This document shows positions 13,194 through 39,388 of a DNA stretch of 64,000 bases, in pieces. The translations under genes and the position numbers were made by a program. How positions within the stretch are numbered: position 1 is the stretch's first letter; each line of letters starts with the position of its first letter. Source of the stretch: a virus; IMG/VR virus record IMGVR_UViG_3300012017_000779, positions 1 to 64,000 of that record. One strand, 5' to 3'. Below the pieces are notes generated by a model, which worked only from the letters and a program-made list of their open reading frames with translations, was not told the DNA's origin and did no database searches.

Positions 13194-14405
13194 ATGCCAA
13201 AGAAAATTAAAGATTGCACATGGGATTACCTAACAGGAATTCCTTTACCGGTACATGCTGATACATATACAGTTATAAGTCATGAAAATGTGATGGATTA
13301 CTCAAAAACAGCATTAATTAATGCAGGTTTTACAATTGAAAGAGAAGAATATAGAGCAACTGCTGATGGGCAGATTGCTCAGGGAGTTTTTAGATTACAC
13401 TATGGAACTGACCAAGAATTATCAATGATGTTTGCATGGACTAATAGTTATAATAAGCAAGTAAGATTTAAATGTGGTGTTGGTGCTTATATAAATACTA
13501 ACGGAACTGTGATGGTATGTGGGGACATGGGTAACTGGGCAAGAAAACATACAGGAACAGCTGACACAGAAACAATAGCTACAATTACTGAACAAGTAAC
13601 TAATGCTCACATGTATTATAATCAATTAGTATCTGATAAAAATGTTATGCAAACCATTAGCATGACTAAAAGAAAACAAGCACAATTATTGGGAATATTA
13701 TTTGCTGAGTATCAAATACTTACTACTGAACAAGCTAGTATAGTGAGACAACAGATGGATAAACCAAGTTATGTGTTTGCAGATAACAATAGTTTATGGG
13801 CATTCTATAACTATGTTACTTTAGCATTACAGCAGTCACATCCTAAAACATGGATGGAAGATCAAAGAATATTACATTATTTTATTAATTCTGTAAATAA
13901 TTTTCCAGTGAGCAGTCAACCTGCACAGGTTCCTGTAGAAGAAGTTATAGTTACTGAAGACATAATAAATACAATTGATCCTAATCAGATTAGTTTGTTA
14001 GATCAGATTGCTGACATGGAAGCTGATATGATGGATGAAGATGTTAGATATGCTGCAAATGATGAAGAAGAAATCTATAATGAAATAGAAGTAGAAGAAC
14101 TTACTATAGAACAACCTGAAGAATCTATATTGCAATATACCGATAAAGATGGTAATACATTTGAGTCTATAGAATTTCATAATGCAGTTGTAGAACCTTC
14201 ATTAGAAATTCATAAGCAATTTGAAAATGATATGGAAAAAGATATGTCTGAAGAAGAGAAAGAAAATCTACAAAACTCTGCAGATTTAAATTTGTTGGAT
14301 GAAAATCCTAACAAAACAAAAACTTTAGATTCAGATTTTGATTTAGATTTTATAGTTACTGAAGATAATACAAATAAAGAAGAAGATTTATCTGACTTTT
14401 TCTAA
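13194..14405 (+). CDS. DUF932/DUF945-like protein with long acidic C-terminal tail
   Basis: YTVISH...NSYNKQ....G.....NG.......HTG and WAFYNYVT motifs. Confidence 0.6.
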   Translation: MPKKIKDCTWDYLTGIPLPVHADTYTVISHENVMDYSKTALINAGFTIEREEYRATADGQIAQGVFRLHYGTDQELSMMFAWTNSYNKQVRFKCGVGAYINTNGTVMVCGDMGNWARKHTGTADTETIATITEQVTNAHMYYNQLVSDKNVMQTISMTKRKQAQLLGILFAEYQILTTEQASIVRQQMDKPSYVFADNNSLWAFYNYVTLALQQSHPKTWMEDQRILHYFINSVNNFPVSSQPAQVPVEEVIVTEDIINTIDPNQISLLDQIADMEADMMDEDVRYAANDEEEIYNEIEVEELTIEQPEESILQYTDKDGNTFESIEFHNAVVEPSLEIHKQFENDMEKDMSEEEKENLQNSADLNLLDENPNKTKTLDSDFDLDFIVTEDNTNKEEDLSDFF

Positions 14406-14418
14406 GTAAAAATAAATT

Positions 14419-14452
14419 AAGGGAGAAACATTATGTTTTTCCCTTTTTTTTT
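14419..14452. terminator. Terminator at the convergence of the two transcription blocks
   Basis: AAGGGAGAAACA-TTA-TGTTTTTCCCTT plus a long T-tract between convergent stops. Confidence 0.8.
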
Positions 14453-17400
14453 AACGTTCTGATATAGACTTATATAATTTTGTAGCTTCTTCTGGATTAA
14501 AATTATAACCACTAAAGCCCATCATTCTTTTAAAATAAACCCATGCTTTATTATCTCCTTTTTCAACAACACCTGATTTTCTTTCATATACTTCAAAAGG
14601 AGAAGTTAGTTGACCAAGAAATTTTATAACTCTATCAACAGATGTTAACATTGCAGATGGACTTCTTACTTGACGGTAAGCATCTTTTATACTTACATAT
14701 GCTGCTGTTTCAGATTTCATTCTTGTAAGTTGATATACAAATAAATTCATAAAGTATCCTTTTTCATCATCATCATCATCTCCTGTAAGTAATGATAAAG
14801 CTAATATTAAAGATAATATTATTGATAGTTCCATTATTGCTTTTTTTATACTAGCTTTTTCAAAAGCACTGTAAGTTGACCAATTTTTTATTAAATTAAA
14901 TTTAAGTTTTTTTAAATCTCTTCCAGCAGTATCTAAAAATACTCTATAAAAACCTTCTGTCATACTATCAAGTTCAATGTCATATGATAATTTTTTAAAT
15001 CTCCTTTTAAAACCAGGAACCATATGTTTTCTATACATAAGTATTAATCTTCCTATGCTATATTTTTGAAATGTACTTTTATCAAATTTATTATAAATAC
15101 CTTGCATTCTTTTACTTAATGCATGTAATCTATTTTGAAAATCTTGTCTTCTTGCATCAGTAAAGGGTAATGTTTTATATTCAGTTCCTTCCATTATAGG
15201 TGCATTATAGGCATCTAGAATTACTATTTCTACTTTACCTTCTAAATTTGTACCTTCAGGAGAATTTATATATTTTTTATATGCTTCATATAGATCAATT
15301 ATTTTTTTAGATTCAATATCATAAACTTTTGTTCCATGCATTAATGCATACATATTACTAACTGCAATTTCATATTCACCCCAATGTTGATTAAAGAATA
15401 ATGTATTTGTACTCATAAGTTTACGGGCAACAGAAGCTGAAACTACTTTTCCATATTCATCTGTAAAATCACCTTGCATAGGTTCAAAAAGTTCTACTAG
15501 TCTTCCTTGAAAACTTTTAGGAGCTACATTACCTTGAAAAAAATCTCCAAGAGCAGCAGGTGTATCAGATATAAAATTTGTTTTTGCAGTTAAAAGATTT
15601 TTTTTAGTAAAAAATTCTCCAGAATTAGCTTCAATTATTAATTGAATATTTCCTTGTAAATTATTTGCAATACCTTTTAATAAGTCTCCAGCAATAGAAG
15701 TTAATGCAGAATATGCAATTCCTAAATTTGTTAATTTTCCTGAGTCAAATTTTGCACCAAGAGTTTCAAAACTAGATACTTGTTGAGATTCACCAAATAT
15801 AATCATATCAATGAAAGCATTTACATGAGCTTTACTATTATTATCAAATTGTCCTTTTGATATTATAGGAAGATTATATCCTAATTTCTTAGCAAAACTA
15901 TCTAAAATATTTTGTCCAGATGAGTCTGTTTTTTCAACAACTCTATCACCTATAGCAAATTTAAATAAATTAATTTCAGCATGTATTTTATTTAATGCAT
16001 CAAATTTATTAGACATAGCACTAAACTGTAATACACTAGCTCCTAAATCATATGATACAATATCAGTTGACATTTCACTTATAAAATATATAGGTAAGTT
16101 TTTATTTCCTTCACCTGCAATTGCAGAACTTTCAGATAAGTTACCAAAATCATCTTCATAATTTTGTACATTAAATGCTTCTTTAAATGTTTGTTTTGTA
16201 CCTTGAATTATATTAGTTTGTAATCTTTCATTAGTTGATTTTGGAATTGATGGTACATAATAACCAGGTCTTTTTGAAGATGGTAATTTTTCTTGTTGTT
16301 CAAAATATAATTTAGTCAACCCTTCATGCAATCTTCCTTTTTCATTTTTTGGTTTTCCATTTGTATCATACAAACTTGTCCAATTTTTATTTAAATATTT
16401 ATCTGCAGGTCTTGTAAATTCACTATTAAAATCTATACTAGAAGCCCAATTGTTAAATGTATCTTCATCAATAAATCCTTGTACTAAATCATTTTGTTTT
16501 TCTGCTATAGCAGCATCTTTTATACTTTGATCTACACTAGTAGTATTAGCTTTATACCAATCATTTTTTTTCTTTTTATATGCAGCTAATGCTACTGCTT
16601 CAGTAGGTATTTTTCCTAAATCTTTAAAAAATTTATATCTTTCAGTATTATATTTATTTATATCATATTTTTGTACAAAAGCAAGTCTTGTAGTTTTTAA
16701 ATAAGCTTCACTATCTTTTATATCTTCATCATAGTCTACATTTTTTTTAAAAGTATCTATTTCTTCATATATTCCAGAATATAAATTTTTAATTGATGTA
16801 GCTCTACTATAAGTTTTAAAATATGGTTCTAAATAATTTTTAAAAAGATCATTTTTAATTTTTATATCTTGTAATCTAGCAGTTTCCATTTCACTTTTTA
16901 TTGCTTTAGCAAACAATGCTATTACATTATCTTCTGAACTTATTAAAGGATCAACTAAATAATTAAAAAATGATTCATCAATATTTGTACTTGTTAGTTG
17001 ATCTATTAAAGTTTTTTCATCTAATGTAAAACCTAAAAGTTTATTTTTTTCAGCTTCTAGTTTTCTAACTCTATCAACAATAAATTCTGGTTTATTCTTA
17101 GGATAATTTCTAACATTTTCTATTCTTTTATCAATAGTTTCAATTTGATCTAAAATTTTTGCATTACCATATTCTGGTTTATATTTTAAAATAAAACTTG
17201 CTAATAATGGAATTGCACTTTTATTAAGATCTTTTTTCATCTTATCTCTAATTGCAATTGATTCTGTAATCCTTGCTTGAGGAGTCATTTTATTAATATC
17301 TATACCCATTTGAGAAAGAGTATTTTTATCTCCTTTAAAAAAGCTATCAATATCAGCTTTATCAATAGCATCTAGTATAGTATAGTTATTTATTCTAGTT

Positions 17401-17930
17401 AAAATAAGAGAAAAATCTTTCATTAAATTTTTCTTTTGAGTATCTGATAAATTTGGTTTTGCAGAAAGTTTTATCCAATCTTGAAAATCTTTATTTAAAA
17501 GTCTAAACTTTCTTAATGTATCATCAACAAATATTTCAAGAGATTTGATTTGTTGTATAGTATCTATGTCTTCATTTATTTTTTCTACTTTTAATTTTTC
17601 AATAGTTGTTTTTAAAGTAAAAAGTTCTTTTTCTTTTGATTTAAATTTTTGACCTGATAAAGCACTTAATTGTTTTTTAAGTTCAACTTCTATTTTTTCA
17701 ACTAAAGATTGTATTTCTATTTTTTGTTCAGCAGAAATATCTTTATTTTCTTTTACTTCTGTTTGATCTATAGTAGCACCTTCTTCCATTACTGAACTCA
17801 TATCAAATAAAAGTTCATCCTCATCTGCATAATTAAAGTATTTATCAGTAGCAGCTTGGTCACCATTATTTTCTGCTAACTTATCTATATACTCTTTTGA
17901 ATTTCTATTTATACAATTTCCTATTGACAT
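14451..17930 (-). CDS. Large internal virion (cargo/ejected) protein
   Basis: 1159 aa, last gene of the vRNAP cluster; C-terminal TM-like helix followed by GDDDDDE; single Cys at residue 6. Confidence 0.65.
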   Translation of the reverse strand: MSIGNCINRNSKEYIDKLAENNGDQAATDKYFNYADEDELLFDMSSVMEEGATIDQTEVKENKDISAEQKIEIQSLVEKIEVELKKQLSALSGQKFKSKEKELFTLKTTIEKLKVEKINEDIDTIQQIKSLEIFVDDTLRKFRLLNKDFQDWIKLSAKPNLSDTQKKNLMKDFSLILTRINNYTILDAIDKADIDSFFKGDKNTLSQMGIDINKMTPQARITESIAIRDKMKKDLNKSAIPLLASFILKYKPEYGNAKILDQIETIDKRIENVRNYPKNKPEFIVDRVRKLEAEKNKLLGFTLDEKTLIDQLTSTNIDESFFNYLVDPLISSEDNVIALFAKAIKSEMETARLQDIKIKNDLFKNYLEPYFKTYSRATSIKNLYSGIYEEIDTFKKNVDYDEDIKDSEAYLKTTRLAFVQKYDINKYNTERYKFFKDLGKIPTEAVALAAYKKKKNDWYKANTTSVDQSIKDAAIAEKQNDLVQGFIDEDTFNNWASSIDFNSEFTRPADKYLNKNWTSLYDTNGKPKNEKGRLHEGLTKLYFEQQEKLPSSKRPGYYVPSIPKSTNERLQTNIIQGTKQTFKEAFNVQNYEDDFGNLSESSAIAGEGNKNLPIYFISEMSTDIVSYDLGASVLQFSAMSNKFDALNKIHAEINLFKFAIGDRVVEKTDSSGQNILDSFAKKLGYNLPIISKGQFDNNSKAHVNAFIDMIIFGESQQVSSFETLGAKFDSGKLTNLGIAYSALTSIAGDLLKGIANNLQGNIQLIIEANSGEFFTKKNLLTAKTNFISDTPAALGDFFQGNVAPKSFQGRLVELFEPMQGDFTDEYGKVVSASVARKLMSTNTLFFNQHWGEYEIAVSNMYALMHGTKVYDIESKKIIDLYEAYKKYINSPEGTNLEGKVEIVILDAYNAPIMEGTEYKTLPFTDARRQDFQNRLHALSKRMQGIYNKFDKSTFQKYSIGRLILMYRKHMVPGFKRRFKKLSYDIELDSMTEGFYRVFLDTAGRDLKKLKFNLIKNWSTYSAFEKASIKKAIMELSIILSLILALSLLTGDDDDDEKGYFMNLFVYQLTRMKSETAAYVSIKDAYRQVRSPSAMLTSVDRVIKFLGQLTSPFEVYERKSGVVEKGDNKAWVYFKRMMGFSGYNFNPEEATKLYKSISER

Positions 17931-20900
17931 AATTTGTTATTTATTTCTGTTTCTATTTCAATTAAATCTTCTTTTGTAGTTGCATTATTTATTTTTTTAT
18001 AAACATCTTGTATATTTATATTAAATAAAGAAAGAAGTTCATCTAAATTATAAGCTATAACTTTTTGTTCAAAATCTTTAATAAAATCATTTTTTTGTTT
18101 TGCAGTTAATGGTATTGATTCTACAATATCTTCTTCCATTATACCAGTTACCATATTTACATTTTTTAATTGTACTTCCCCGGTATCTTGATCAATTAAA
18201 TCATAGTTAAAGTTTTTATTTAACTTCCATGTACTTACACCTACTGTAAAAGTTATTGGAGGTTTACCAGTAGCTATAAAAAGACTTTCATAAACTTCTC
18301 TAGCTTCATTAAGTCCTTCAAGTTCTTTTTTAATAGGAGCACTAGTAGATGGTTGAGACCAATCATATTTATTAATTAAATAATCTAAAGCTGTAGCATG
18401 AGACGGTTCTCCAAGTTCTGCATAATATTGAAGTTGTCTTCCTTTTAATTTACCTGATTTTAAAACATCTAGAATAAATGCTTTTCTTTTTGGTTTAACA
18501 TCTTTAAATTTATCAGTAGTTAACCAATCAATATAATTTATAACTGCTTCTTTAGTAGTATTAGTTTTTATAGTACCTGTTCTATTAAAAGAAGCCCAAG
18601 GATTACTAAAACTATTTACATCACTAACCACTTCCATAGTATAAACTCTATTGTTAGCTTTTGCTTCTTTTATATTAGCATCCCTATCATATTTACCATC
18701 TTTAGTTTTAATGTTAGAAATAACTACATTTTTATTTTCTAATTGAGAATATATATCATTACTATTAACACTAGTAGATGATTGAGTAGCAAGTGCAGTT
18801 TTAAGTTGTGCTCTCCAATTAGTATCAGCCATATTAATAGTTGGTATACCTTTTCTTCTAGCCATTTCAACAGCTTGTCCTGTTCCTCCTTTAGGTCTTA
18901 AAGGATCAGCTGTTTCTTTAGCATAGAATATTACAAAGTCTACTGGAGTATCAAGATTTTTACCAAATATTTGATTAGTATTTCTAGCCATTAAATTAGC
19001 TACAAATGCAGCAGATCTTTCAGGATCATTTCCTTTTGTTATAGCTTTTTTTCTAGTGCTATCTAACATTACATTCCAAGCAGGATGAATTTCTTCTGCT
19101 ATTTTAAGTTCTTTTTCTCCAGTTTTTACACTACCAATAAATATTTCTTTTAAAGATGTTACACCTTTTTCAAATGCAGCATCTGCACCAGCTGCTCCAC
19201 CACTTCTTAATGTATATCCTAAAGACTCTAAATATTTAGCAACTTCTGGCATAACATCAAGAACTTCTTGTGGAGTTTCTCTAGATCCTATACCTGCATA
19301 AGTCATAGTAGGTGTAGTAGATTTACTAGGAAGAGAATCAAATACAGGTCTATCACCTGATACAGGTGGTTGAGTAGGTTGACCAGTAGTAATTTTATAA
19401 CCAGTTTTTAAATCAACATTTTCAATAACAATTTCACCTCCATCTTTATCTACTAAATTATATAAATTATTTTTTTGTAAAATCCATGATGTACTATGTG
19501 GTGCTTTTTCATTTTTTCCTGTTTGTGAATTATAAAATTCTTTAAAAAATGTAGAAGGAGTAAAAAATTCTTTAGGTTTAACACCATTAGATTTTTCTAA
19601 ATATGTATTATATGCAGCAATATCATCATCTGATATAATTTTAGTTTTAATAATATTTTCTTCATTTTCTAAATCAAATTCTATTTCTATGCCATCATCA
19701 ATATCTTTTTTAACAGGATTGTTATATTGATCTGCATTTTCAGTATATTCAATAAACTGTCTATTTTTTACATCTATTACTTTACTAAAAATATTATTTA
19801 AAGTAACAAAAGAAAAATCTTTACTTTCTAAATCATTAATAAAAAATGTTGATGCATCAATCATTTCATCTGTAAATTTTTTAGCATCTAGAACTCTATT
19901 GATACTTAATTTACTATTTCCAAAACCATGTTGATAAAAAAGAATTAATGAAAAAGGTTTAAAAAATTCTAAAGATTTTTTATCTTTATTTATTGTAGGA
20001 TCTGCTAGATCTTTTAAGTTTTTATTATAAATAGAAGATATTTCTTTAGTTAATAAAGATTTGTTATTTAAACTTAATACTTTATTTATATTTCTTTTAT
20101 TACTTTTTAAAACTATATGATTTAAAACTGGAAAATTTACTTTTGTATCATCAAAGTTATTTATAATATTCATTATACTTTCTGAATATGAATATTTAGT
20201 TTTTCCCATTATGTATGGAGAATTAAAACTTTTTAATAAAGCAACTTCAGATAAGTATTCTTCAGTTACTTCAGTATCAATTAAAGAATCTCTTAGTACT
20301 TCTCTTTCCATTACATATCTTACATAACTTGAAAATGTTTGAAATGGATTTTTATTTTTTTCAAACACATCTAAAGCATCATCATTTAAAAATATTTTAT
20401 TATCAAAATCTGATTTTAATTTTTCTTCATTTACAATTATATTTTTTCCAACAATTACATCTTGTTGTATTGTATTATCAATTATAACATTTTTAGAACT
20501 TAAAGCTTTAGGAATAGTTATATGTTTTCCATTTACTGGATCAGTAAAATTAGACATATAGTTTTGATATATATAATCTACCACAGCATTATTATATGAT
20601 GAAGTAAAATATTCTTCACCTTTAACACCTTTACCAAATTTTCTTGTAATTCTAGCTCTTTCTTTTAATAACTTTTCAGAAATAAAAGAAGAAATATTTT
20701 TATCTAATCTTAATTTAAATAAAGGTTTGATTAAATCAATCATTAATGCATCCTGATTAAAAGATGAAAGCAAAGAATCTTTCATTAAAGCAGTAAGAAA
20801 CTCTTGATCTATTTTAGAATTTCTTTTTAATTTATCAAAAAGTTCTATTCTTTTTATAACTTGTTGTAATGTAGTAAGTTTACTAGTATCTGGTGCATAA

Positions 20901-23900
20901 ATCATTTGCAATGTTTCCAGACCTTCATATTGTTTTTCTAGTTCAATAAAATTTAAAAATAAAGCCAAAGATTTTAAAGATGCATCATTATTCATTGATT
21001 CTTTTAAATCAGATATGTTAATATCATCTTTAAATAATTCTTTAGATAAAACTTCTGATAAATAAACATAGTTGTTACTAAAATCATAAGTTTTAGTTTT
21101 ATTATCAAGAATTTTATTTTCAAGACTTTTTACTATATCATATACAACTTCATTATTATTACTTTTAATGCTGATAATATTTAATGGATTAATTTTTTTA
21201 TTATTTAATCCTTTTATTAATTCATTTAAAGTATAATAAAATGATTGTTTTTTATTATCTTTTATTAAATATTCATCATCAGCAGGATATATTTTTTCTA
21301 AAGACTTTATTGTAGTTCTTAATTTTAATAATGTAACACTATTAATAACTCTTTGTAATTCATCTGGTGCTAAAGTATTTAAAATTTTATTGCTTATTTC
21401 TGATGCAATATTATATTTATTACTTTTTTCAAATTGAGCATCTGTAGAAATTAATGGATTTAAAGAACTATTTTCTAATCTTTGTTTAAAAAAGTATTCT
21501 CTAATTAAAGGTTGAGTTACAAAATAAAAAACTTCTTCTTCATCTACACCTGCTTGCATTAAATAACTTATTACACCTATTCCTTCAGGAGTTAGTTGTA
21601 AAACAAAAGGGAAAGAATTTTTTGCTCTATCTAAAATACCGTTAAGCATGTGTGAATTAAGATCTGTAATTCTATTTCCTTTTTGAGACTTATTACCTGA
21701 TATAGAAATTACTTCATCACCATTTTTTGATTTTATAATGTTGTGTTTAAATCTTATAATAAAAGGAATGTCAATTAAACCATCTTCAAATTCACGTAAA
21801 TTTTTATTAAAAACAGAGTTTTTATATGACTTTGGCATCTTAGCACCCAACATTTTAAAGAGCACATGATTCTTTGTATTTTTAGCTTGTATTCCTAATG
21901 AAGGTTCTAAAGATAAATTAGCAGCAAACTTGTATAAATTATAGATATAATCATAATTTCTTGAAGGACTTATAATTTCTTTTTTTCCATCTGCACTTTT
22001 ATTTTTTTCACCAACTTTACTATCAGTATGAGAAACATTATCTAATCTATTATACTCATTTACAATATTATTTTCTAAAGATTTACTATATTTTTCTACT
22101 AAATATGTTAAATTAGGTTTTGTAAGTATTGCAAAGTTTTCAGGAAGAGTTAAAATATCTAAACTTATTTTAATGTATTGATTTTGTAAATACTTTTCTT
22201 GCTGTTTAATTAATTTATTAGATGTTAATGCACCTAATTCAAGTGTACCAGTAAACTCTTTATCTTTTGTTTCTTTTAATATTTTATTAAAGTTTTTTAT
22301 TGGAGTATTTATATAATTACCTTCTATATCAATATTAGGCATACTCATAAATAATTTATCACCATCATAATCAGAACCTGATTTAGCAACTATTTCTGTT
22401 GGAACAATAATAGCATTACCATAACTTTCATCTAGAAAATGCCATACCTCAGCTCCTTCAATTGTACTTAATGCATCATTAGGAATCCTTGGACCATATA
22501 AAGATATTGAAAGTCTATTTTTTTCTAACCAAGCATCATCTTTAATTAATTCATTTAATCTTGTTATAGTACCAATTTTATTACCTTGTAAGTCATTTCC
22601 ATTTAAAAGATTAATAAAGTCTCCTTGCAATGCAATAGCTACTTTCATTAAACCTGTTCTACCATTTTTATTTCGTATGTAAGAAGGCAGTGTATTTGTA
22701 CCTAATACTTTTTTAATTTCAGAAACTTTAGTAATTGTTTTATATTGAGTATTCCAAAGTCCATTTGTAAATGTAGAAGCAGCTTGAGTTAAAGGTTCAC
22801 CATTAATTGTTTGTTTAATTAATCTTGATTGAACAATACTCATTATAAGTTTTTCAATTGTTTGAGCTTCAGGATGTATAGAAAAATCCATAGATGCAGC
22901 ATTACCTTTTTTAGTTGCATTTAATAATCTAATTAAATGGTCAGGCACATCTCTTTCATCTAAGTTATCTCTGATAATTTTTATAAACTTTGAAAAATCA
23001 CCATTGCTTACATATTTTCCATCTTTTTCAGTAAAACCAATTTCATTAAGTAATTTTAATTTAAGTAATGCACTATAGTCATTTACTATTTTACTATAAC
23101 TATCTAATGTTTTTTTATTTTTTGGATTAATTAACTCTCCATTATCATATAATGTGTCTGTTAATATTACTCTTGTTTGTGTAGCAATTGGAAGACTTCC
23201 TTTAAAGGTGTCATTAATGACTGTAACTTCTTTTAAGTTAGCAAGGTATACTGGATTAATAGTAAATGTAAAATCATCACTGATGCCAGTATTTTCAGTT
23301 TTATCTTCAAAAATATCATCAGTTTCTTTATTACTAGTAAGTTCAGAACCTTTTGAACCTGATTTAAAAGTTACATACTGAACATTATCTTTTAACATTT
23401 TAAGATGCAACTTATATAGTTCAGATCCTTCTTTTGCATTCACTCCTGGTATTAAAGGACTAACAGCAAATTTATGCATAGCAATTGCTGGCAAATACTT
23501 ATTTTTTATAGCACCAAATAAATGTAACTTATATATAGGAAAAAATTGTTTAACTGTATTTGGATCAATAGTTTCTCCTTTAACAATTTTTTGATATAAA
23601 CTTTCTTGCTCCATTGACCAGCCTCTTCCACTTACTTTATGTAATATTCTATAGGCATCAATAGTCATAAAAGCCATACCATCACTTTCAACTATTTTTT
23701 CATAAGCTTCTCTATCTTCTTTGATTCTTTCTTCAGTCTCTGCTTCACTAAAAGTTTTTAAATAATCTTCTCTCCAAGCTTCAACTAAATCATCTATATA
23801 AATAGATTCTCTTGTAGCATCTTTAATAACTCCTGTATTTATTACTTCACTAAATACATATTTATTATAATCTATATTATCTTTACTTAAGCTTTTGTTA

Positions 23901-29386: not shown

Positions 29387-32300
29387 TATTGACAGTTTTT
29401 AATTTTGGTTAATAAATCATCTTCAATTTTTGTAATATTATCTTTTAATCCTATTTCAGTTGCTTTATTTTTATCTTCAGTAGAATTTATAAAAGTATCA
29501 GTAGTATTTTGTACTTCTTTTAAAATAGTTTTTTCAGACTCATTTGCTTCATAAGTACTTTCTTCAGATTTTAAATTTTCAATATCTTCAGAAGTTAAAT
29601 AAAGGTCTTTATTTAATAAATCTTTTGTATTAACAATTGATTCTTTAGAATTTTTTCTATTTCCTTTTATAGTAATTTTATCTCCATCAACTTTCATAAC
29701 TGTAACTTGTGTATAATCTTTATTATTTTTAAAATATCTTGAATTAACTTCTATAGGACTAACAAATTCTTCTTTAACTTCACCATATAAAGATAGTAAA
29801 TTATCTTTTAAATTAGTTAACTTTTCAATACTTCCTAGAATATTCTTTTTTTGAAAATCAATTTTTGCATATTGTAGTTTATTTGTTAATTTTAAAATTT
29901 CATTAGTTAATAAAGAATTATAATTTGTCTTATTTAAATTGCCAAGTACATTAACTGTATCTTGTAAATTCATATGAAAAGAAGATTGACCCATATAAGA
30001 AAATAATGTTTTTTGATATACTTTAAATTCTTGTGCATTAGAAGTATCATTTGCAATTAAATATTCAATTCTTATTACAGCATTATGAATAAGTTCAGAA
30101 ACTTCTGCCATATTTAAATCTTGAGATTCTATTGATTGATATTCTACATCAGTAATAATTTTAGTAGCATTTAAAATTTTAGCTGCCATTAATTGATTTT
30201 CATGAGGAGGTTTTGTACTATCTTCAAATGATTTATGTTTATCATAATAATTTTTAAACTTATTATCTCCATCTTCAGATACTTTAAGTCTGTCAGCAAT
30301 AAAAGCATTACTAATTGCTATATTTGAAATATCAGGTATAGTAATTGATTTTAATATATTTTCTAACTTATCTAAAGATATTTGACTATTTTCTAAATCT
30401 TTTTTATAACTGTTAATAATAACTGCATTCTTATTTTTTAAAAGTTGTACTTCTTGTGATGTTTGTTTTATATCAGGACTTTCAAAAGAAAAAGATTGAG
30501 CTCCTTCATCATCTTTAGGTGCTAATAAATCATCTATTTCTTCCGCAACACTTTCTAATGAAAGAGGAATAAATACATCATTAATTGCATTATTAGGACC
30601 TGTTTTAAATATTTTTTCTTCAAAGTCTTTATCACCTTTAGGATCTTTAAACTTATTTTTCTTTACTTTACCATCATCATCAAATTCATAAATTACTTCT
30701 TTTGCTAAACCTGCTGCTAATGGTTTTTTAGCAGAAATAATTTGATCTGTTTCTTTATCAGATTCTCTTTCTATTGGCAATAATCCTATTTCTGTTTCAA
30801 CACCAGTTTGTCTTTTTAATAACTCTCTATACACTGCTTGTTGTAAAGTATATTCATTTCTTTTTGAATATTTTTTATTATCAAAACTATTTGTTAGTGA
30901 ATTAAAATTTGTCCATTTACTTTTAGAACCTGTTTTGATATCTATAATAAATGCATTACCTTTTTTATCAACTACAATTAAATCTATTTCTCCAGCAATT
31001 CTATCTTTTTTACCTTCTTCAGTAACAATATTAGAATCCCAAACAACTAAATTATTACCTACAATATAGTAACCTTCATCTTTAAATTTCTTACCTAGTT
31101 GAACTATATATCCAGTATCATCATTAAATAATTCTTCATATGCTTTTTTAGAAATTATTTTTTCATCAAACTCAGGTTTTTTTCCATATTGAAAATAATC
31201 TTTAATTAAATCTACATAGTTACCGGCAACTCTTCCATCTTCATAAGATTTTTCTGATATTAAATTTAATACTTTGTCAAAAAGTTCTTCATTGTTTATA
31301 TCAGTTTCAACAGTTGTATCTAAAGCAGCTAGTTCTGTATTATTAATTGTAAATATTGCAAATCTACCATCTTCTTTTACTTTTGTTAATAATCCTTTAT
31401 CAACAGCTTTATTATGCATTTTAATAGCACCTTCACCAGCAGATTCAGTTTTTAATGTTTTAACACCTTTTGCTTTTAAGTATCTTATTAAAGTTTCAAA
31501 CATTTTTGAACCTTGCCCTTTACCAACTTCATTAGCAGATATACCATCTATTCTAAATTCTGTAGGTGAAATCATTACTCCACTAATAAGACCATCTTTA
31601 GTTTTAAATTGATATAAATCCCCATTAATTACAATATTATTAATAGTTCCAATTTCAATTTTTGAAATTTCTGGAGTTCCTAAATATTCTATATCAGCTT
31701 TAGTATCTGTAGTACCTAAAGCAGTTAGTTTTGCAGTTAAAGTTTTTAAGTCTGCATTTAAAGTTTTAACTCTATCTTTATTTTTTGCTTTTTTAGATAA
31801 TGCAATATCTTCTTTTAAAGATTTAATTTGGTTATTTAAAGATTCAATTTTATTATTTACTACATTAGATGTTATAAAAGATTTTATATCTTTAGATAAC
31901 TCAGTAAATAATTTATCATTAATACCTGATGCACCACCATCTTTTAAAAGTTTAATAAAGGCATCTACAGAAGCTTCATTAAGACCATTTTTTCTAATAG
32001 TATCATCATATGATTTTTCTACTAGTTTATAACTACTATATTCATATTTTTCTAAATAAGCTTGTATAGCATTAGTAACACGTCTGTGTACTAAGTTATC
32101 TATTAAATAGGCTTTATCTCCTTTTTTAAGACCTGTTACCGGGTCATCTTCAGTTAGTACATAATCTTTTTGAACTGATTTATTTAATGCTATAAGTTTT
32201 TCTATTTCTTTAATTACCTTTTTTTGAGGAGTTGTTCTTTCCTGTAAACTTCTAGACTTATTAACTTTAAGTAATTTTTTTGTTTCTTCACTTAAAGTTT

Positions 32301-35300
32301 CAATTTCTAATTTTTTAATATTATAATTAGGATCATCTTCTTTAAGTTTAGATAATTCTTCTCTTAATTTATTTAATTCTTTACTTTTTTCATTAACAAC
32401 AGCTATTATTTGATTAGTACTTAAATCATTAGTGTTAACAGTTTTATCATTATTTTGAAAAGTAAATTCTGATATTAATTCAATATCTTTATTAAATTCA
32501 TCAATGATAGTTTTTGCAGAAGCATCAGTATTAACCCAATCTTGAAATGCTTTTGAAGAAGCATCAGGAGCATTTATTTTATCTTCAGTTGTTTTACTTG
32601 GTAATGTAGTTTGAAAATCTTTGTAAAGTTTATCTTTTAATCCATCAGACATAGCTTTAAAATCTGATTCACCTATAATATAAGGATCTTCAAATTCTAA
32701 ATCAGTTAAACTTTTAGAAGTTTCAAAGTTTTTAATAATATCTAATTTCTCTTTAGCATATCTATTTTCTATTTCAGTTACTTTTATTGGATCTGGAATT
32801 AATTCTTCAGAGTAAACTTTATTTTCAGTAAATCTAGTTTTGTCATTTAAATCATATACATCTCCTGTTTCATCATTATATCTTAATACTCCTTGATCAT
32901 CTTTGTATAATATTATTGTTGTTTCAGAATTTTTTGGAGTAAGTTCAATATAAGAATTATTATTTAATATTTCATCAACATTTTTAATACTGATTGATTT
33001 AGCATTTCCTTTTAATTCAATAGATTCTTCAGGAATTTGTGTAACTGTTTTTTCTAAAAGATCAAGTTCATTTTGTTTTTTTTCTTCTAATTTAACAAGT
33101 TCTTCAGTATAATCAGCTATTACATTACTTACTTCTGAAAATTTAGATTTTGCTTTTAGATCTCTATCTTTTGATAAATACTTATCATATATTTCATTAT
33201 ATTTTACAGTATCTATTTTATAAACTTCTCCGTCTATTGAATTAAAAAACTCAGAGGGTCTAGTTCTTAGTGTTTGCCAGTCAGAATAGTCATTAGCACT
33301 CATATAAAGGCCTTCATCAGCCATTGCATTTAATAAGGCATTACTTTCAATATTAGCAATTTCTTGTTTAACTAAATCTCTAAAATATTTTTTTCTATTT
33401 TTATATAATCTTTTAGACCATTCTGTATTTTTTCTAACTAATCCATAAAAATTTTCAGGATCACTAAGTAATTCTATATGAGATGCTAAATTTCTAGAGT
33501 CTTTATTTAATTTATAAAAGTCTACAAGTTGTACAAAAGCATCATCTAATTCTGTACTAAAAATATTAGTATCCTGAGCTTTTGCTAATGTACGTAAATA
33601 AGAGTCATGAGATTTTTTAAGATTACTTAATAGTTCAATCATTTTTTCTTCATCATCTTCTTTACCATATAACTTAGACATTTTTTCTTCAATATCTTCA
33701 GCAGTAATATCTTGTTCTGTATCTTGTTGAAGTTCTTCTTGAACTTCTTTAGTGTATTCTGATCTATTAGTAAATCTATTAAATGCATCATATGAAGTTT
33801 TAAACTCTTTTAAAGTTGAAATTTCTTCTTCTAAATCATTTATTTTAATTTTATCTGACTCTATAGTTGTAGAAGTTTTAGACTTAACTCCTTTTTTTAA
33901 CATATCTAATTCTAACTCAAAAGAATTAATACTATCAGCTAATAACTTAACTTGAAATAATGGTGAAATTTTTGAACTACTAACATTTTTTAAAGTACTA
34001 TTTTTTAAATAAGTTTGCTTAATACTACTAATTCTATTTGCAACATCTTTAAATGCTTCATTTGCATAAACAATATTTTTAACTGCAACATCCCAACCAT
34101 TTCTAAGAGCAGCAGCTTCTACATAATTAGGATCACTCCTATCAGGCATGTTGTCATTATTTATTGGATTTGGAAAATTTTCAGAAACAGTTTCATAAGC
34201 TTCTTTTATAGAATCAATTTTATTTATAGTCTTGTCTATTTTTAATCTATATCTTTCAGCATCTTTTAAATCATCAAACTTTAATTCTTCTTGTAATGCT
34301 TCATCAGAAACATCTCTTAATGATTTTAATTTATCTTGAAAAATTTCAGAAGAACCAGTTTTTATCATAGTAGAAACTTGGTTGATTAATGAATCTAACT
34401 CAGCATCTTTAGATTCTTTTGTATTTGCTTGTTCCTTTATTAAAGATAATGTATCTTGAGAACCTGCATTTACATATCTATTAGATAATAAATCATTTAT
34501 ATCAATCTTATTTAATTCATTTACCAAAGTATTTGTTACTGCTTCTTTTTGTTCTGTCCAAGCTTTATATCCTGCTTTATCAAAAATTCTTCCATAAGCA
34601 TTTTGTAACAATGAAAAAGTTTTGTTCATGCCTCCACCTAATGTTCCCATAAAAAAACCTGAAGCAAAAGTTTCAAATCCTTGTGCTGAAAACTCTTTAT
34701 TAAGTTCTTCATTGTAAATACTTAATGGTGTTCCTGAATTATTTTTTAGGTTAATACTATTAACAGCATTATTAAAAAGACTTGCTTTTAAATATGGACT
34801 ATTATAAGAATCAGTATACCATTTTTCATTAGCTCTTGCAATAATTTCTTGTGCATTTTCTTGAAATCCTTCAGAAAAATTAGATTTAAAATATTTAATA
34901 GAACCAAGTACTGATTTAGAAAGAGGTTGTTTCATCCAACTTTTTGCTAAATTTTTAAAACCTTGATATCCAACAGATGATTGATATAAAAATTGTTTAG
35001 CTGTTTTATCATATAATACTTTACCTATGGTACCAAAAGATTTATGTGAAACATTCATTATATCTTGAGTAGCATTTTTAAAGTAATTTTTTATACCACC
35101 TTTATTTAAAATGTTTCCAAAAGTTATTTTATTTGTTCCATATATTAATCCAGCATTTTTATAAAAAGTTTCTAAACCAGATTTTACAGAAACTTTAGTC
35201 ATATCCTCCTGTTCTTCATTAGTAGGGGCTCTTTTATTTCTTAAATAAAATTGATCATATTTATTATTATAAACTTTATCCTGAACCATTCCTGCTTCTA

Positions 35301-36402
35301 ATCTAGATTCAGATATGGCTGCATTTATACTTCTTACATCTTGATAAAATCCACCTGCAGTTTTAAAAGCTGTAGCTAAATTAGTAAGATTAGATGTTTT
35401 AGCATTTTGAAATGATCTTCTAGCATTATTTACTGGATTAAGAAAAGAACCTACTGGAGTATCTAAAAGATAATTTGCATCTTTCCAAAATGAATTTGCA
35501 CTTTTTAAATTATTTAAAGACTGTACAGTTTGTACTGTATTTTCTGCATCTTTAGCAAACTTAAGTCCTTTTGCTGCTTTATATACATTACTTAAAGAAT
35601 TTTTTGTAGCTCCTAAAAAACTTAAACCTCCTGTTACCGGAGCCAAAAGACCAGCAGCAATTTCTTCAGTTACTATTTCAGAAATAATTCCTGCAGTATA
35701 ACCAAAGTTCATAAATGTATTACTAAAAAAAGGAACTAAACCTTTTTTAGTAGATGTACCAATAGCAGCTGCTTCTTCATATTCTCTAGCATCATCTAAA
35801 TCACCACTAGTAAAATCACCATGAACCATTTTTAATAAACTTTTTGGTCCAGCTACAAAACCTCTTGTAAATAATGGTACAAAAGAATGTGTTAATTGTC
35901 TACCAAAGTCTTGCCATGCAGAAGTGTTTTCATTAAAAGTAGATTCATTATCTTTCATAGGATTAAATCCTATTTTATCAAATGTTTCTGTTCCATATGC
36001 ATAGTATCTTTTAAAGTGTGCATTTCCACTACTTCCAGCATTATAAGAATATAATTTTGCAGTTGAACCTTTTTGTTCATGTGATTTTGATAAAGATGTT
36101 AAATAATTCTTAATTAAAGAAACTTTTTCTCTAGGATCTATACCTTTACTATTATATGCAATACCACCTTTTTTTGGAGGTGTGCCTACAATATATTTTC
36201 TTACATTTTTTGATTGATTAACTAAACCTTTTGGAACTAATGGATTTTCTAAAGCAGGAGGATTTGCTTTACCAAAATCAATTGGATCACCTTCAAATGG
36301 AGTATAATTTTTAGCATCTGGATTAAGAGAATTTATACTTCCAACAGCAGGTCCTAATGTATCAAGAGGATTAAAACCTTCTTCATTGTTATTTAATGCC
36401 AT
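29386..36402 (-). CDS. Large internal virion protein with PD-(D/E)XK nuclease and GNAT acetyltransferase domains
   Basis: 2338 aa; IAGEIDLIVVD...IIDIKT...QQAVY nuclease; GKGQGSKMF GNAT motif A; N-terminal Gly/Ala-rich amphipathic segments. Confidence 0.75.
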   Translation of the reverse strand: MALNNNEEGFNPLDTLGPAVGSINSLNPDAKNYTPFEGDPIDFGKANPPALENPLVPKGLVNQSKNVRKYIVGTPPKKGGIAYNSKGIDPREKVSLIKNYLTSLSKSHEQKGSTAKLYSYNAGSSGNAHFKRYYAYGTETFDKIGFNPMKDNESTFNENTSAWQDFGRQLTHSFVPLFTRGFVAGPKSLLKMVHGDFTSGDLDDAREYEEAAAIGTSTKKGLVPFFSNTFMNFGYTAGIISEIVTEEIAAGLLAPVTGGLSFLGATKNSLSNVYKAAKGLKFAKDAENTVQTVQSLNNLKSANSFWKDANYLLDTPVGSFLNPVNNARRSFQNAKTSNLTNLATAFKTAGGFYQDVRSINAAISESRLEAGMVQDKVYNNKYDQFYLRNKRAPTNEEQEDMTKVSVKSGLETFYKNAGLIYGTNKITFGNILNKGGIKNYFKNATQDIMNVSHKSFGTIGKVLYDKTAKQFLYQSSVGYQGFKNLAKSWMKQPLSKSVLGSIKYFKSNFSEGFQENAQEIIARANEKWYTDSYNSPYLKASLFNNAVNSINLKNNSGTPLSIYNEELNKEFSAQGFETFASGFFMGTLGGGMNKTFSLLQNAYGRIFDKAGYKAWTEQKEAVTNTLVNELNKIDINDLLSNRYVNAGSQDTLSLIKEQANTKESKDAELDSLINQVSTMIKTGSSEIFQDKLKSLRDVSDEALQEELKFDDLKDAERYRLKIDKTINKIDSIKEAYETVSENFPNPINNDNMPDRSDPNYVEAAALRNGWDVAVKNIVYANEAFKDVANRISSIKQTYLKNSTLKNVSSSKISPLFQVKLLADSINSFELELDMLKKGVKSKTSTTIESDKIKINDLEEEISTLKEFKTSYDAFNRFTNRSEYTKEVQEELQQDTEQDITAEDIEEKMSKLYGKEDDEEKMIELLSNLKKSHDSYLRTLAKAQDTNIFSTELDDAFVQLVDFYKLNKDSRNLASHIELLSDPENFYGLVRKNTEWSKRLYKNRKKYFRDLVKQEIANIESNALLNAMADEGLYMSANDYSDWQTLRTRPSEFFNSIDGEVYKIDTVKYNEIYDKYLSKDRDLKAKSKFSEVSNVIADYTEELVKLEEKKQNELDLLEKTVTQIPEESIELKGNAKSISIKNVDEILNNNSYIELTPKNSETTIILYKDDQGVLRYNDETGDVYDLNDKTRFTENKVYSEELIPDPIKVTEIENRYAKEKLDIIKNFETSKSLTDLEFEDPYIIGESDFKAMSDGLKDKLYKDFQTTLPSKTTEDKINAPDASSKAFQDWVNTDASAKTIIDEFNKDIELISEFTFQNNDKTVNTNDLSTNQIIAVVNEKSKELNKLREELSKLKEDDPNYNIKKLEIETLSEETKKLLKVNKSRSLQERTTPQKKVIKEIEKLIALNKSVQKDYVLTEDDPVTGLKKGDKAYLIDNLVHRRVTNAIQAYLEKYEYSSYKLVEKSYDDTIRKNGLNEASVDAFIKLLKDGGASGINDKLFTELSKDIKSFITSNVVNNKIESLNNQIKSLKEDIALSKKAKNKDRVKTLNADLKTLTAKLTALGTTDTKADIEYLGTPEISKIEIGTINNIVINGDLYQFKTKDGLISGVMISPTEFRIDGISANEVGKGQGSKMFETLIRYLKAKGVKTLKTESAGEGAIKMHNKAVDKGLLTKVKEDGRFAIFTINNTELAALDTTVETDINNEELFDKVLNLISEKSYEDGRVAGNYVDLIKDYFQYGKKPEFDEKIISKKAYEELFNDDTGYIVQLGKKFKDEGYYIVGNNLVVWDSNIVTEEGKKDRIAGEIDLIVVDKKGNAFIIDIKTGSKSKWTNFNSLTNSFDNKKYSKRNEYTLQQAVYRELLKRQTGVETEIGLLPIERESDKETDQIISAKKPLAAGLAKEVIYEFDDDGKVKKNKFKDPKGDKDFEEKIFKTGPNNAINDVFIPLSLESVAEEIDDLLAPKDDEGAQSFSFESPDIKQTSQEVQLLKNKNAVIINSYKKDLENSQISLDKLENILKSITIPDISNIAISNAFIADRLKVSEDGDNKFKNYYDKHKSFEDSTKPPHENQLMAAKILNATKIITDVEYQSIESQDLNMAEVSELIHNAVIRIEYLIANDTSNAQEFKVYQKTLFSYMGQSSFHMNLQDTVNVLGNLNKTNYNSLLTNEILKLTNKLQYAKIDFQKKNILGSIEKLTNLKDNLLSLYGEVKEEFVSPIEVNSRYFKNNKDYTQVTVMKVDGDKITIKGNRKNSKESIVNTKDLLNKDLYLTSEDIENLKSEESTYEANESEKTILKEVQNTTDTFINSTEDKNKATEIGLKDNITKIEDDLLTKIKNCQ
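31313..31733 (-). repeat. 25-bp imperfect direct repeats flanking the GNAT domain
   Basis: GTTGTATCTAAAGCAGCTAGTTCTG (31313-31337) vs GTAGTACCTAAAGCAGTTAGTTTTG (31709-31733), 396 bp apart and in frame. Confidence 0.65.
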
Positions 36403-39388
36403 AACTATTCATTTGTTGAAAAGTAGTAAAATAATCATCTTTAAGATTTGGAAAAAATTCATTAACTAATGAATTTCTAAATTCAGTTAATTGATTTCCA
36501 TAAACAGTTGAACTTTCAGTAAAAGTTTCAATTGTTTTTTTACCAGTATTAGGATCAATAAAAGGAAAAGTACCTGTTACAGTAAAATCACTTGGACCTC
36601 CTAAACTTTTATTAATTTGAAATTTATAATCATTATCTGTAAGATCTTCATATTTATATGGTTTACCTCTACTAATATTTGCAGCAAGAGGATCTTCAAA
36701 ATAATCTTTATACATTTGACTTTCCATTTCTTTATTTTTCATCATATATGTAATACCATTTTTTAACATTAAATCTGCTTGATTTTGACTTAATATTCCT
36801 GATTTTTTAACTGAACCATCAGTATTTAATTGACGAGTATTTTCAGTAATCCACTCTATATCAGGTTTTAAAATATAACCTCCTATATCACTTTTACTAC
36901 CTGCAGTAGGTAATACAGTAAGTTTAACTACTCCAAATTTACTTTTAGGATTATCAATATCTGCTCTAAACTTATTTAATATTTGTAAACCTAAGTCATT
37001 TCTTTTAAAATCAGATCCAGCTTTATCATAAGCATTGGCACTATAACCCATAAAAGAAACTCTATCAGTTTTAGAATTTTGCCAGTCAAATTTATCTAAA
37101 TCATACATGGCTTCTCCCCAATAAGTTCTACCAACAGGATTATTAGGATGTACAACAATTGAACTTAGTGCATCTACTGCTATTCCAGTACCAGTTCCAC
37201 GTAAACCAGCATCATTATTTTTTAAAAAGTCACTATCACTATATAATTTATTAGCTCTTGTATTAAAAAAGTCATACTCTTCATAATCTCCACCTTCAGA
37301 TCTACCAATACCTGGTATCATATCTTTAGCCTTTTCCCAATAAGATCTTCCATCATAAGTATATTTTCCTGCTTTTGCTAATGCAGCAAAGTATTCATCT
37401 TTTGTTCTTTTGTTGCCACTTTCATCAAATAAATATTGAACATTACCTCTATTTTCACCAGTAAGTTCATTCATTATTTTACTTTCAATAAGTTTTGATG
37501 TTTTTATTTTCCACTTTTCAGTTTCATCTAAATATCTAAAAGTGTCATCTAATACTAATTTACCAGCTACATACTGTTTATATGGTTCATTATCTTTTTG
37601 AAATGTAGTAAAAGTACTATCTCCTTTATGATTCGAAATATAATTATTAAATTTATTTACAATTTTTTTAAGATCATTGTCACCAATTCTATTTGTTAAA
37701 TACCAATTTATTGATTTATCATCTTTTATTTGTTTGTCAAATGCATCTAAAGTAACTTTTTTATTTTTACTATAACTTAAAATTTCAGTAGCTTCTGCTT
37801 GACTCATTTTATTACTAGAAACTAAATCATTTAACATATGAGTCATGTTCTTTAATACACCTTGAGCATTATTTTCACCAATAAGCATTTGTGTATCTAC
37901 TTTCATTTTTTGATAATACTTATTTGTTTCATCTGTAACACTACCAGTTTTAAGTGAACCTTTGGGTTCAGAAAAAGTTTGATTTTGATTTTTATATTTT
38001 GCAAAAACTATATTACCATCAGCATCATTAGTCATATAACCTTGTTTAGTATCAACTAAATATTTACCATAAGCAGCTTCTTTCTCAGCAGCAGCTTTAA
38101 TATTTGCTGCTTTTACTGTAGCATTAGCTCTTGTACGTGCTGCACTCATAGTTGCTGCATTTCTTTGAGCAACAAGACGGCTTTCTAATTGATTTTTATA
38201 ATCTGCAAGTTTATATTGATCAACTTTAACATCAGTCTTCATATTTTTTAAAGCAAATAAATTAGCATCTTCTAAAAATTGTTTTTGCATTAAAGCAGCT
38301 GCCATTCCATTATCTACTTTCCATTTTAAAGATTTTACATCACCATAAGGATTTTTAAATTTACCATCAGCATCAACAGTTTCTTTCATGATGTCAGCAT
38401 TTGTTTTTGCTCTATTTAATACTTTAGTATTTATGTCTTTATTTAATTTAAGTTGAGCAATTTCTTTATCAATATTTGGTCCTCCTTTATTTTCTTTTTT
38501 TTGTTTTTCTAAGTCTAGTAACTGAGCATCATAATTTGTATTGACTTCATTTAAATGATCATACTGAGCAATAGATTGATCTTTAAGAACAGTAAACTTG
38601 TCTTCTAAATATTTCATTTCTGCCTTATTCTTATCTCCTCCAAACTGTGCTGCATTAGTTACACCATATCTTTTTCTATCTACATATGCTTTAGTTCTAA
38701 ACCAATCTTGTACTCCTGGATCATCACCAAGACTAGCTTCATATAATTTATATAACGGTTCAACTAACTTTTCACCATTAGTTGTTGTTATTATATAACC
38801 ATTCTTAAACTCAGGTGCAAATTGTACATTTCCAAAGTCTTTAGTAATTTTACTAAGTTCTGCAGTAATATCTCTGTTAGGAGTATAGTTTGATATTTCA
38901 ATATTTCCAGCTTCTTCATCAGTAGCATCTTTAAATTCTTGTAATTCAAACTTAATTTTATCTACTCCTTCACTCCAATATTTTTTATTTTGTATTGGAT
39001 CAATTTTACTTAAGTAACCTTCACCAAGAGAAATTTGAGATTTAGCTTTTTTGGTTTTAACCATGTCAGACATTAAAGCAGCATCTTCATAAAAAGGTTT
39101 AAATATTTGAGAAGCTTGATTAACATTTTGTTCTAAAGATAAATCTAACTGTGATACTCTTTTTAAATTAAATTCAATGTCTTTTAAATATGTGTCTCTT
39201 TTTTTTATATTATTATCTCTTGTTAAATCAGCATTATAGTATTCACTATACATACTATTTAAAGCCTTCCAATTACTATCATATTGAGACTGTTTAGTCT
39301 GCATAATATTTTGATAGAAATTGTAGTCAGGCTCAAAAGGCTGAAATTGAGGAATGTAATCTGTGACACCTTGGATGTACGTTGCCAT
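36389..39388 (-). CDS. Internal virion (cargo) protein
   Basis: 999 aa, Cys-free, helical; first gene of the giant-protein cluster. Confidence 0.65.
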   Translation of the reverse strand: MATYIQGVTDYIPQFQPFEPDYNFYQNIMQTKQSQYDSNWKALNSMYSEYYNADLTRDNNIKKRDTYLKDIEFNLKRVSQLDLSLEQNVNQASQIFKPFYEDAALMSDMVKTKKAKSQISLGEGYLSKIDPIQNKKYWSEGVDKIKFELQEFKDATDEEAGNIEISNYTPNRDITAELSKITKDFGNVQFAPEFKNGYIITTTNGEKLVEPLYKLYEASLGDDPGVQDWFRTKAYVDRKRYGVTNAAQFGGDKNKAEMKYLEDKFTVLKDQSIAQYDHLNEVNTNYDAQLLDLEKQKKENKGGPNIDKEIAQLKLNKDINTKVLNRAKTNADIMKETVDADGKFKNPYGDVKSLKWKVDNGMAAALMQKQFLEDANLFALKNMKTDVKVDQYKLADYKNQLESRLVAQRNAATMSAARTRANATVKAANIKAAAEKEAAYGKYLVDTKQGYMTNDADGNIVFAKYKNQNQTFSEPKGSLKTGSVTDETNKYYQKMKVDTQMLIGENNAQGVLKNMTHMLNDLVSSNKMSQAEATEILSYSKNKKVTLDAFDKQIKDDKSINWYLTNRIGDNDLKKIVNKFNNYISNHKGDSTFTTFQKDNEPYKQYVAGKLVLDDTFRYLDETEKWKIKTSKLIESKIMNELTGENRGNVQYLFDESGNKRTKDEYFAALAKAGKYTYDGRSYWEKAKDMIPGIGRSEGGDYEEYDFFNTRANKLYSDSDFLKNNDAGLRGTGTGIAVDALSSIVVHPNNPVGRTYWGEAMYDLDKFDWQNSKTDRVSFMGYSANAYDKAGSDFKRNDLGLQILNKFRADIDNPKSKFGVVKLTVLPTAGSKSDIGGYILKPDIEWITENTRQLNTDGSVKKSGILSQNQADLMLKNGITYMMKNKEMESQMYKDYFEDPLAANISRGKPYKYEDLTDNDYKFQINKSLGGPSDFTVTGTFPFIDPNTGKKTIETFTESSTVYGNQLTEFRNSLVNEFFPNLKDDYFTTFQQMNSYGIK

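Follow-up and report, generated by a model that had tools for sequence, protein, structure and literature searches.

Cysteines at the facing ends of giant crassvirus cargo proteins point to a putative disulfide-linked thread around the virion RNA polymerase

Introduction

How a podophage transports megadalton protein cargo, here including a whole RNA polymerase, through its narrow tail is an open question, and one that concerns the phages found most abundantly in the human gut. The locus described here raises it in a particular form, as its giant proteins keep cysteine (Cys) only where one protein of the series ends and the next begins. It lies in a stretch of 64,000 nucleotides (nt) of viral DNA (positions 1 to 64,000 of IMG/VR record IMGVR_UViG_3300012017_000779), referred to as the window, in which four consecutive minus-strand open reading frames (ORFs) encode proteins of 999, 2338, 3821 and 1159 amino acids (aa). 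These are designated g999 (36389..39388), g2338 (29386..36402), g3821 (17921..29386) and g1159 (14451..17930).

Judged by sequence comparison, the block is the cargo and virion RNA polymerase (vRNAP) module of crassviruses, in the order gp47-like cargo protein (g2338), vRNAP (g3821, similar to crAss001 gp50 and to gp66 of Cellulophaga phage phi14:2) and gp49-like RNAP-associated protein (g1159), and it is preceded by a Cys-free protein (g999) at the position of the crAss001 cargo protein gp46. In crAss001, proteins of the gp47-gp50-gp49 type were detected in the virion and placed in the cargo zone of the capsid (PMC10172136). Presence in the virion has been established by mass spectrometry in crAss001 and phi14:2 only, and the proteins of the window are known here from their sequence.

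Cysteines in the window

The four ORFs together contain exactly four Cys in 8317 residues, every one of them encoded by TGT. Given the Cys content of the other ORFs in the window (1.24%), approximately 103 would be expected. Not a single Cys is internal. At the first junction, the sole Cys of g2338 is its penultimate residue (..KNCQ*, Cys2337, codon 29392-29394, minus strand), and it faces Cys4 of g3821 (MITC, codon 29375-29377, minus strand). At the second junction, Cys3820 of g3821 (..KLCQ*, codon 17927-17929, minus strand) faces Cys6 of g1159 (MSIGNC, codon 17913-17915, minus strand). Thus g2338 is the first link of the Cys chain, the polymerase is the middle link with Cys at both ends, and g1159 is the last link with no Cys at its C-end. 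If four Cys were scattered at random over these proteins, the probability of finding every one of them no more than 6 residues from the four facing ends would be about 7e-11.

The genes are tightly packed. The stop codon of g2338 overlaps the ATG of g3821 by one base, and the end of g3821 overlaps g1159 by 10 nt, so that the TGT of Cys3820 shares its TG with the ATG of g1159. The three other Cys are not constrained by any overlap. The protein in front of the chain, g999, has no Cys, and its homologs in related viruses (978-1229 aa) are likewise Cys-free, while the 882-aa ORF upstream of g999 has six.

Conservation among environmental relatives

The environmental relatives are IMG/VR loci with an identity of only 33-43%, and the four-gene order of the window recurs in them. 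Within this clade Cys were found on both sides of 64 out of 64 distinct junctions, with the genes spaced from -10 to +18 nt. The 132 distinct chain proteins (220,152 aa) contain 162 Cys, 151 of them terminal and 11 internal, and the internal Cys frequency is accordingly 0.005%, compared to 0.94% for the 275 non-chain ORFs of these loci.

The placement is equally regular when the proteins are considered separately. The gp47-like relatives have one Cys, within the last 1-5 residues; the polymerases have one at position 3-5 (their starts being MIQC, MNITC, MKVTC, MIKC or MAC) plus one at the C-end; and the gp49-like proteins have an N-terminal Cys at position 3-6. Throughout the clade the C-terminal Cys has 0-3 residues after it and the N-terminal one has 2-5 before it; in crAss001 gp50 up to 8 residues come after the C-terminal Cys. 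The Cys2337 of the first junction is kept in nine environmental lineages with gene spacings of -1 to +17 nt. At the second junction, an alignment of the C-terminal 200 aa of 25 sequences (mean column identity 23%) has just two invariant columns, Cys3820 being one of them, and the same holds for Cys6 of g1159 in an alignment of the N-terminal 300 aa of 25 sequences (mean column identity 32%). The Cys of the C3820 type is also kept in those lineages where the genes do not overlap.

Cultured and reference crassviruses

The homologs of the window proteins in crAss001 (gp47-gp50-gp49; PMC10172136) and phi14:2 (gp078-gp077-gp076 in GenBank numbering) correspond to them in order and share the terminal-Cys rule. 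In crAss001, the sole Cys of gp47 is residue 2339 of 2341 (..RCNS*) and the sole Cys of gp49 is residue 5 (MAKKC), while gp50 has Cys 5 (MSKRC), 1334 and 2404 of 2412, the last lying 9 residues from the C-end. The phi14:2 series reads ..NTIC* / MAC...ECK* / MSC with no further Cys. The rule is obeyed as well by DAC15, p-crAssphage, crAss002, cr271_1, cr4_1 and cr55_1. The module of the window clade is the stricter one overall, the window itself having zero internal Cys. In crAss001 and its many gut relatives gp47 is located on the opposite strand, convergent to gp50 and gp49, and the terminal Cys are kept. Since gp47 is on the other strand in these phages, the pairing is not an artefact of the junction sequence or of translational coupling.

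The rule held at every junction examined, save for one intron interruption, described below, and for IAS virus, where the sequence is ambiguous. At the gp055/gp056 junction of the latter (L125:11900-12100) the N-terminal Cys of gp056 is not visible and the record contains runs of N; both the split of the polymerase and the missing Cys may be sequence artefacts, with the reading frame uncertain.

Several further observations were made on the reference genomes. In crAss002 gp33 (L127:11243-23980) the first Cys is residue 35 from the annotated start and belongs to an MSC at residues 33-35, which matches the consensus for how proteins of this family begin; judging from this, translation probably starts 32 codons further downstream than annotated. 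In cr4_1, gp24-gp27 (L129) have in-frame stops under table 11, consistent with stop-codon recoding in a Suoliviridae phage, and the Cys pair is present. Two proteins encoded upstream of the chain, p-crAssphage gp47 (L019:8641-11214) and crAss002 gp30 (L127:548-2221), have a single Cys close to the C-end (856 of 857 and 550 of 557, respectively) and a next gene without an obvious N-terminal partner. The lone Cys may link two copies of the protein (homotypic) or connect it to some other virion protein. crAss002 gp30 is annotated as 'putative transmembrane protein', the same as crAss001 gp45, the connection between the two being one of annotation only.

Gene fission, gene fusion and an intron

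The most informative loci are those in which the chain is divided differently. In 24 environmental loci the end of the polymerase is detached as a separate ORF, of 307-782 aa in nine of them and 242-297 aa in fifteen. Each detached ORF contains two Cys and no others, residue 3 and the final residue, and the new upstream end created by the split gains a Cys of its own, e.g., ..KCKL* or ..KECY*. The C-terminal ~130 residues of the detached ORFs align over their whole length with the final ~130 of the unsplit polymerases, including g3821, in which this conserved C-terminal module comprises residues 3691-3821 (window 17924-18316, minus strand). In the unsplit polymerases the interior homologous to the detached ORF is Cys-free.

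Fusions show the reverse. In Suoliviridae gp47 and gp50 are fused, and cr55_1 gp070 (4551 aa) has Cys only at residues 4026 and 4548, leaving a single Cys pair, with the next protein. In Intestiviridae gp50 and gp49 are fused; only the pair between the gp47-like protein and the fusion is kept, and the far C-end is without Cys. No Cys was found in or near the estimated fusion zones of either family.

An interruption of a different nature is found in two gut crAss001-like contigs (L086:4533-5453 and L087), where 900 nt interrupt gp50 and no Cys pair accompanies the break. Rfam identifies the insert as a group I intron (RF00028, 54.3 bits, E 1e-12), within which an ORF of 181 aa encodes an HNH/I-HmuI-like homing endonuclease. 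Because the insert is a group I intron, the gp50 protein is continuous after splicing, and the interrupted gene without a pair is a negative control for the split rule. The terminal-Cys pattern is thus strictly coupled to gene splits at the protein level, and there are as many Cys pairs as there are protein junctions.

These results bear on a preliminary description of the window, which was based on the letters alone. It had located the four Cys at the codons given above, and translation reproduced the coordinates exactly; its remark that the TGT of Cys3820 overlaps the next ATG and that the other three Cys are free of overlap is also correct. It had further proposed a chain of four proteins. 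The head-to-tail placement of the Cys holds, and the chain has three members only, the 999-aa protein having no Cys. The conservation across Crassvirales, split-RNAP lineages included, that was named there as a check is clearly seen: the Cys are the best-conserved residues of their regions and are kept whatever the gene arrangement, with a new pair for each protein split.

A putative disulfide-linked thread

In the oxidised virion each Cys pair would most likely be an intermolecular disulfide. Cys2337 of the gp47-like protein would pair with Cys4 of the vRNAP, and Cys3820 at the C-end of the polymerase with Cys6 of the gp49-like protein, turning three separately translated cargo proteins into one thread of about 7,300 residues. 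The pairing of a C-terminal Cys with the N-terminal Cys of the next protein is suggested by parity, since every break has one C-end and one N-end Cys and the outer ends have none. Other Cys would have been purged, as in ejected phage proteins that unfold through the narrow tail channel and the periplasm, and the purge would also prevent wrong or branching cross-links. With the Cys within a few residues of the chain end, the joint would be no bulkier than the chain and could be threaded as a single polypeptide; the reducing cytoplasm would then open the links and free the subunits.

In our judgement it is reasonably probable that disulfides join g2338, g3821 and g1159 into such an unbranched 833-kDa virion thread, translocated like one polypeptide and reduced in the cytoplasm. 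The sequences show the Cys pattern, its conservation and its coupling to gene splits, and we infer that a disulfide forms, that it serves ejection or packaging and that it is reduced once inside the cell. To the broader proposition of a 'terminal-cysteine code', in which every protein-level break in the gp47-vRNAP-gp49 cargo would be bridged by a disulfide to give one thread of up to ~1 MDa, with the subunits freed by the reducing cytoplasm, we lend not quite even credence.

Structure predictions were made for the ends at the second junction. In the AlphaFold2 (AF2) model of the last 200 aa of g3821, the last 130 aa have a predicted local distance difference test (pLDDT) value above 90 and Cys3820 comes directly after the terminal helix. 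In the AF2 model of g1159, Cys6 lies in an exposed coil, shortly ahead of two helices that form a confidently predicted small unit (residues 12-34). A complex prediction of the C-terminal module of g3821 with the N-terminal 300 aa of g1159 gave a score of 0.17 and a mark of 0.32, values that favour neither binding nor its absence. Foldseek found nothing with E <= 0.001 for the C-terminal module of g3821 in the PDB. Disulfides as such are present in purified crAss001 virions, both in the tail and in the capsid-associated gp57, which forms a dimer at the portal vertex (PMC10172136).

A number of points weigh against the thread. Gut lineages tolerate internal Cys, with 8 in p-crAssphage gp44 and 10 in IAS virus gp056, and the overlap with the ATG partly dictates the codon of Cys3820 at the second junction of the window. 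The crAss001 atlas leaves gp47, gp49 and gp50 unresolved and is silent on their Cys (PMC10172136). The anoxic gut habitat and assembly in a reducing cytoplasm put natural oxidation in doubt. Sequence alone cannot separate C-to-N pairing from other pairings. Finally, a bond between cargo proteins has been physically seen only in cyanopodophage A4, and the crassvirus bond is a predicted one.

Comparison with other ejected proteins

Cyanopodophage A4 (Anabaena phage A-4L) offers the closest parallel, its consecutive giant ejection proteins sharing the end-only Cys geometry with the window. Cryo-electron microscopy resolved a disulfide between gp27 Cys1715, at the end of the C-terminal helix, and gp26 Cys5 (PNAS 2025, PMC12002296). 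In the A-4L genome gp27 (1717 aa) has Cys1715 and gp26 (1114 aa) has Cys5 as their sole Cys. Homology of the crassvirus proteins to A4 gp27 and gp26 was not detectable (hhalign probability 0.2% for both pairs), and the resemblance is therefore taken to be convergent, one of mechanism and not of family. Unlike the chain of the window, that of A4 joins two proteins only, by a single link, and includes no RNA polymerase. The bond is reported in A4 as a structural detail (PMC12002296), whereas in crassviruses it would follow from a conserved rule that tracks gene splits.

Suppression of Cys is also known from Schitoviridae, where the ejected proteins (the vRNAPs N4 gp50 and DEV gp71, as well as gp72 and gp73) are Cys-suppressed, which has been attributed to passage through the channel and the periplasm (PMC11445570). 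Both systems thus have a giant ejected virion RNA polymerase with companions that are nearly Cys-free. The N4-like proteins, however, have no Cys even at their ends and their vRNAP is a single T7-like chain, while the crAss proteins keep exactly the terminal Cys.

Terminal Cys pairs in crassvirus cargo proteins are not described in the literature searched, which covered the crAss001 atlas and the preprint on the phi14:2 polymerase, and Cys or disulfides in the cargo proteins are unmentioned in these two papers (PMC10172136; bioRxiv 10.1101/2020.03.07.982082). What is new is hence an order-wide Cys rule that follows gene fission and fusion around the virion RNA polymerase; the A4 link and the Cys suppression of N4-like phages were known.

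Alternative explanations

The disulfides might form and serve assembly, locking the three proteins into a 1:1:1 complex that is packaged together and held as a stable core of the cargo, in the manner of the 'mortise-and-tenon' pre-ejectosome of A4, with no need for exit as a single thread. In A4 the helix at the C-end of gp27 sits in a cleft of gp26 and is stabilised there by the bond, as part of an ordered pre-ejectosome; in the window, the C-terminal Cys of g3821 follows the confidently predicted terminal helix of a folded module and Cys6 of g1159 precedes a small helical unit that is also predicted with confidence. A stabilising disulfide could, however, sit anywhere in an interface, whereas the Cys of the crassvirus proteins are always 1-9 residues from the chain ends, and the first and the last ends of the series never carry one, which fits a linear thread better. 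An assembly role has some plausibility but appears improbable to us; judged from sequence data the two roles would be inseparable, and they need not be mutually exclusive. It looks distinctly unlikely that the terminal Cys act in some other way than as disulfides, i.e., as shared metal-ion ligands, as sites of acylation or another thiol modification, or as attachments to another virion protein. In favour of such roles, thiols can do many things, disulfides would be disfavoured in a reducing cytoplasm and in an anoxic gut, and the lone C-terminal Cys of p-crAssphage gp47 and crAss002 gp30 have no obvious partner. But one Cys per end cannot alone build a metal site, and no conserved His or Cys accompanies it; the strict parity at splits together with the Cys-free outer ends argues for mutual pairing; and the identical signature in A4 was shown by structure to be a disulfide.

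The pairing partner is not given by the sequence, and links of like with like (C-end to C-end and N-end to N-end), resulting in homodimers or mixed polymers, can be conceived. Middle proteins with Cys at both ends would then polymerise without limit, a split yields one Cys of each kind, and the A4 bond joins a C-end to an N-end, which makes links of this type very unlikely. The pattern could finally be a product of chance or a nucleotide by-product of overlapping or coupled genes (a TGY beside an ATG, or a junction signal), with no meaning at the protein level. The C-terminal Cys codon at the second junction does overlap the next ATG (A-TG-Y), both in the window and in numerous relatives, and the octamer TGTCAATA is common to both window junctions. 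This octamer was rejected as a nucleotide junction signal, as it is not enriched (3 matches in the window vs. 5.3 expected) and is absent at the junctions of relatives. Moreover, the pairs persist across gaps of up to 18 nt and with gp47 and gp50 on opposite strands in the crAss001-like phages, the intron-interrupted gene has no pair, and the chance probability calculated above is minute for the window alone. The probability of this explanation is virtually nil, and on the comparative sequence data we regard it as refuted.

Two other candidates were dropped. A split intein with protein trans-splicing was rejected, there being no intein or Hint match in Pfam and only the few residues noted above between the junction Cys and the chain ends, and, as with N-terminal-nucleophile processing, the C-terminal Cys would be left unexplained. 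Disulfides that link each cargo protein to the next in one thread thus remain the explanation we prefer.

Protein identities and neighbouring genes

Assignment of the window proteins is based on matches to different parts of their crassvirus counterparts. The similarity of g1159 to crAss001 gp49 covers residues 318-1125 (E 3e-52; tblastn/BLASTP), and g1159 also matches phi14:2 gp076 (E 1e-27). Residues 1823-2355 of g3821 align with residues 897-1377 of phi14:2 gp077 (BLASTP, E 1e-17), the 2180-aa vRNAP described as gp66 (bioRxiv 10.1101/2020.03.07.982082). In this region the catalytic SDYDGDK motif of g3821 (residues 2338-2344, window 22355-22375, minus strand) aligns to SDFDIDK of gp077, the DxDxD-type metal-binding motif of a two-barrel RNAP. 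The relation between the two polymerases was established by pairwise BLASTP; phmmer with g3821 failed to recover the phi14:2 vRNAP among PDB sequences, giving spurious PPR matches only, and a search with the N-terminal 1000 aa of g3821 retrieved only a near-identical contig. For g2338, the BLASTP match to crAss001 gp47 (E 2e-8) is limited to residues 1709-1884, the region of a PD-(D/E)XK nuclease-like domain (residues 1791-1899, window 30706-31032, minus strand; Pfam DUF3799/PDDEXK_1, E 4e-7 for DUF3799). This domain is the sole part that g2338 shares with crAss001 gp47. No BLASTP match of g999 to gp46 of crAss001 or p-crAssphage was found, and it is placed at the gp46 position by synteny alone. 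None of g999, g2338, g1159 and the 882-aa neighbour could be assigned to a PHROGs family.

At 3821 aa the window polymerase is considerably longer than those of phi14:2 and crAss001 (2180-2412 aa), and it has extra inserts. One of them, a DprA/LOG-like domain in the C-terminal region that was recognised by tblastn matches (g3821 residues ~3329-3523, window 18818-19402, minus strand), is Cys-free and shows 31-41% identity to stand-alone 'DprA-like' genes, which are found in more than 1000 unrelated phages of Stenotrophomonas, Pseudomonas, Klebsiella and others. A DUF4326-like domain had also been suggested for the polymerase in the preliminary description, on the basis of LQYYAELGEPSH (residues 3652-3663, window 18398-18433). 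This suggestion was not borne out by Pfam, which gave no DUF4326 match either for residues 3301-3821 (E <= 1) or for the 201-aa stretch around the motif (E <= 10).

Two plus-strand ORFs elsewhere in the window are of interest for their Cys. The most Cys-rich protein of the window, with 13 Cys in 200 aa (6.5%), is encoded at 2941-3543. The ORF at 13194-14405, convergent to g1159, belongs to a family that is kept beside the chain in most relatives and has conserved Cys at positions 8 and 94; this family inflated a naive control count of N-terminal Cys.

Implications

The Cys rule has immediate uses in annotation, as it can point to start codons (as in crAss002 gp33), distinguish true splits from intron interruptions and indicate membership of the cargo chain. 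The signature is present in cultured phages, namely phi14:2, crAss001 and DAC15. If the reading of the Cys pairs as disulfides is true, a redox-switched covalent chain would be a simple mechanism for co-packaging, stoichiometry, ordered ejection and release of the cargo and would account for how readily these genes split and fuse, and the A4 cyanophage would have reached the same solution independently. The giant ejected proteins of crassviruses could then split and fuse freely in evolution, with their physical continuity kept.

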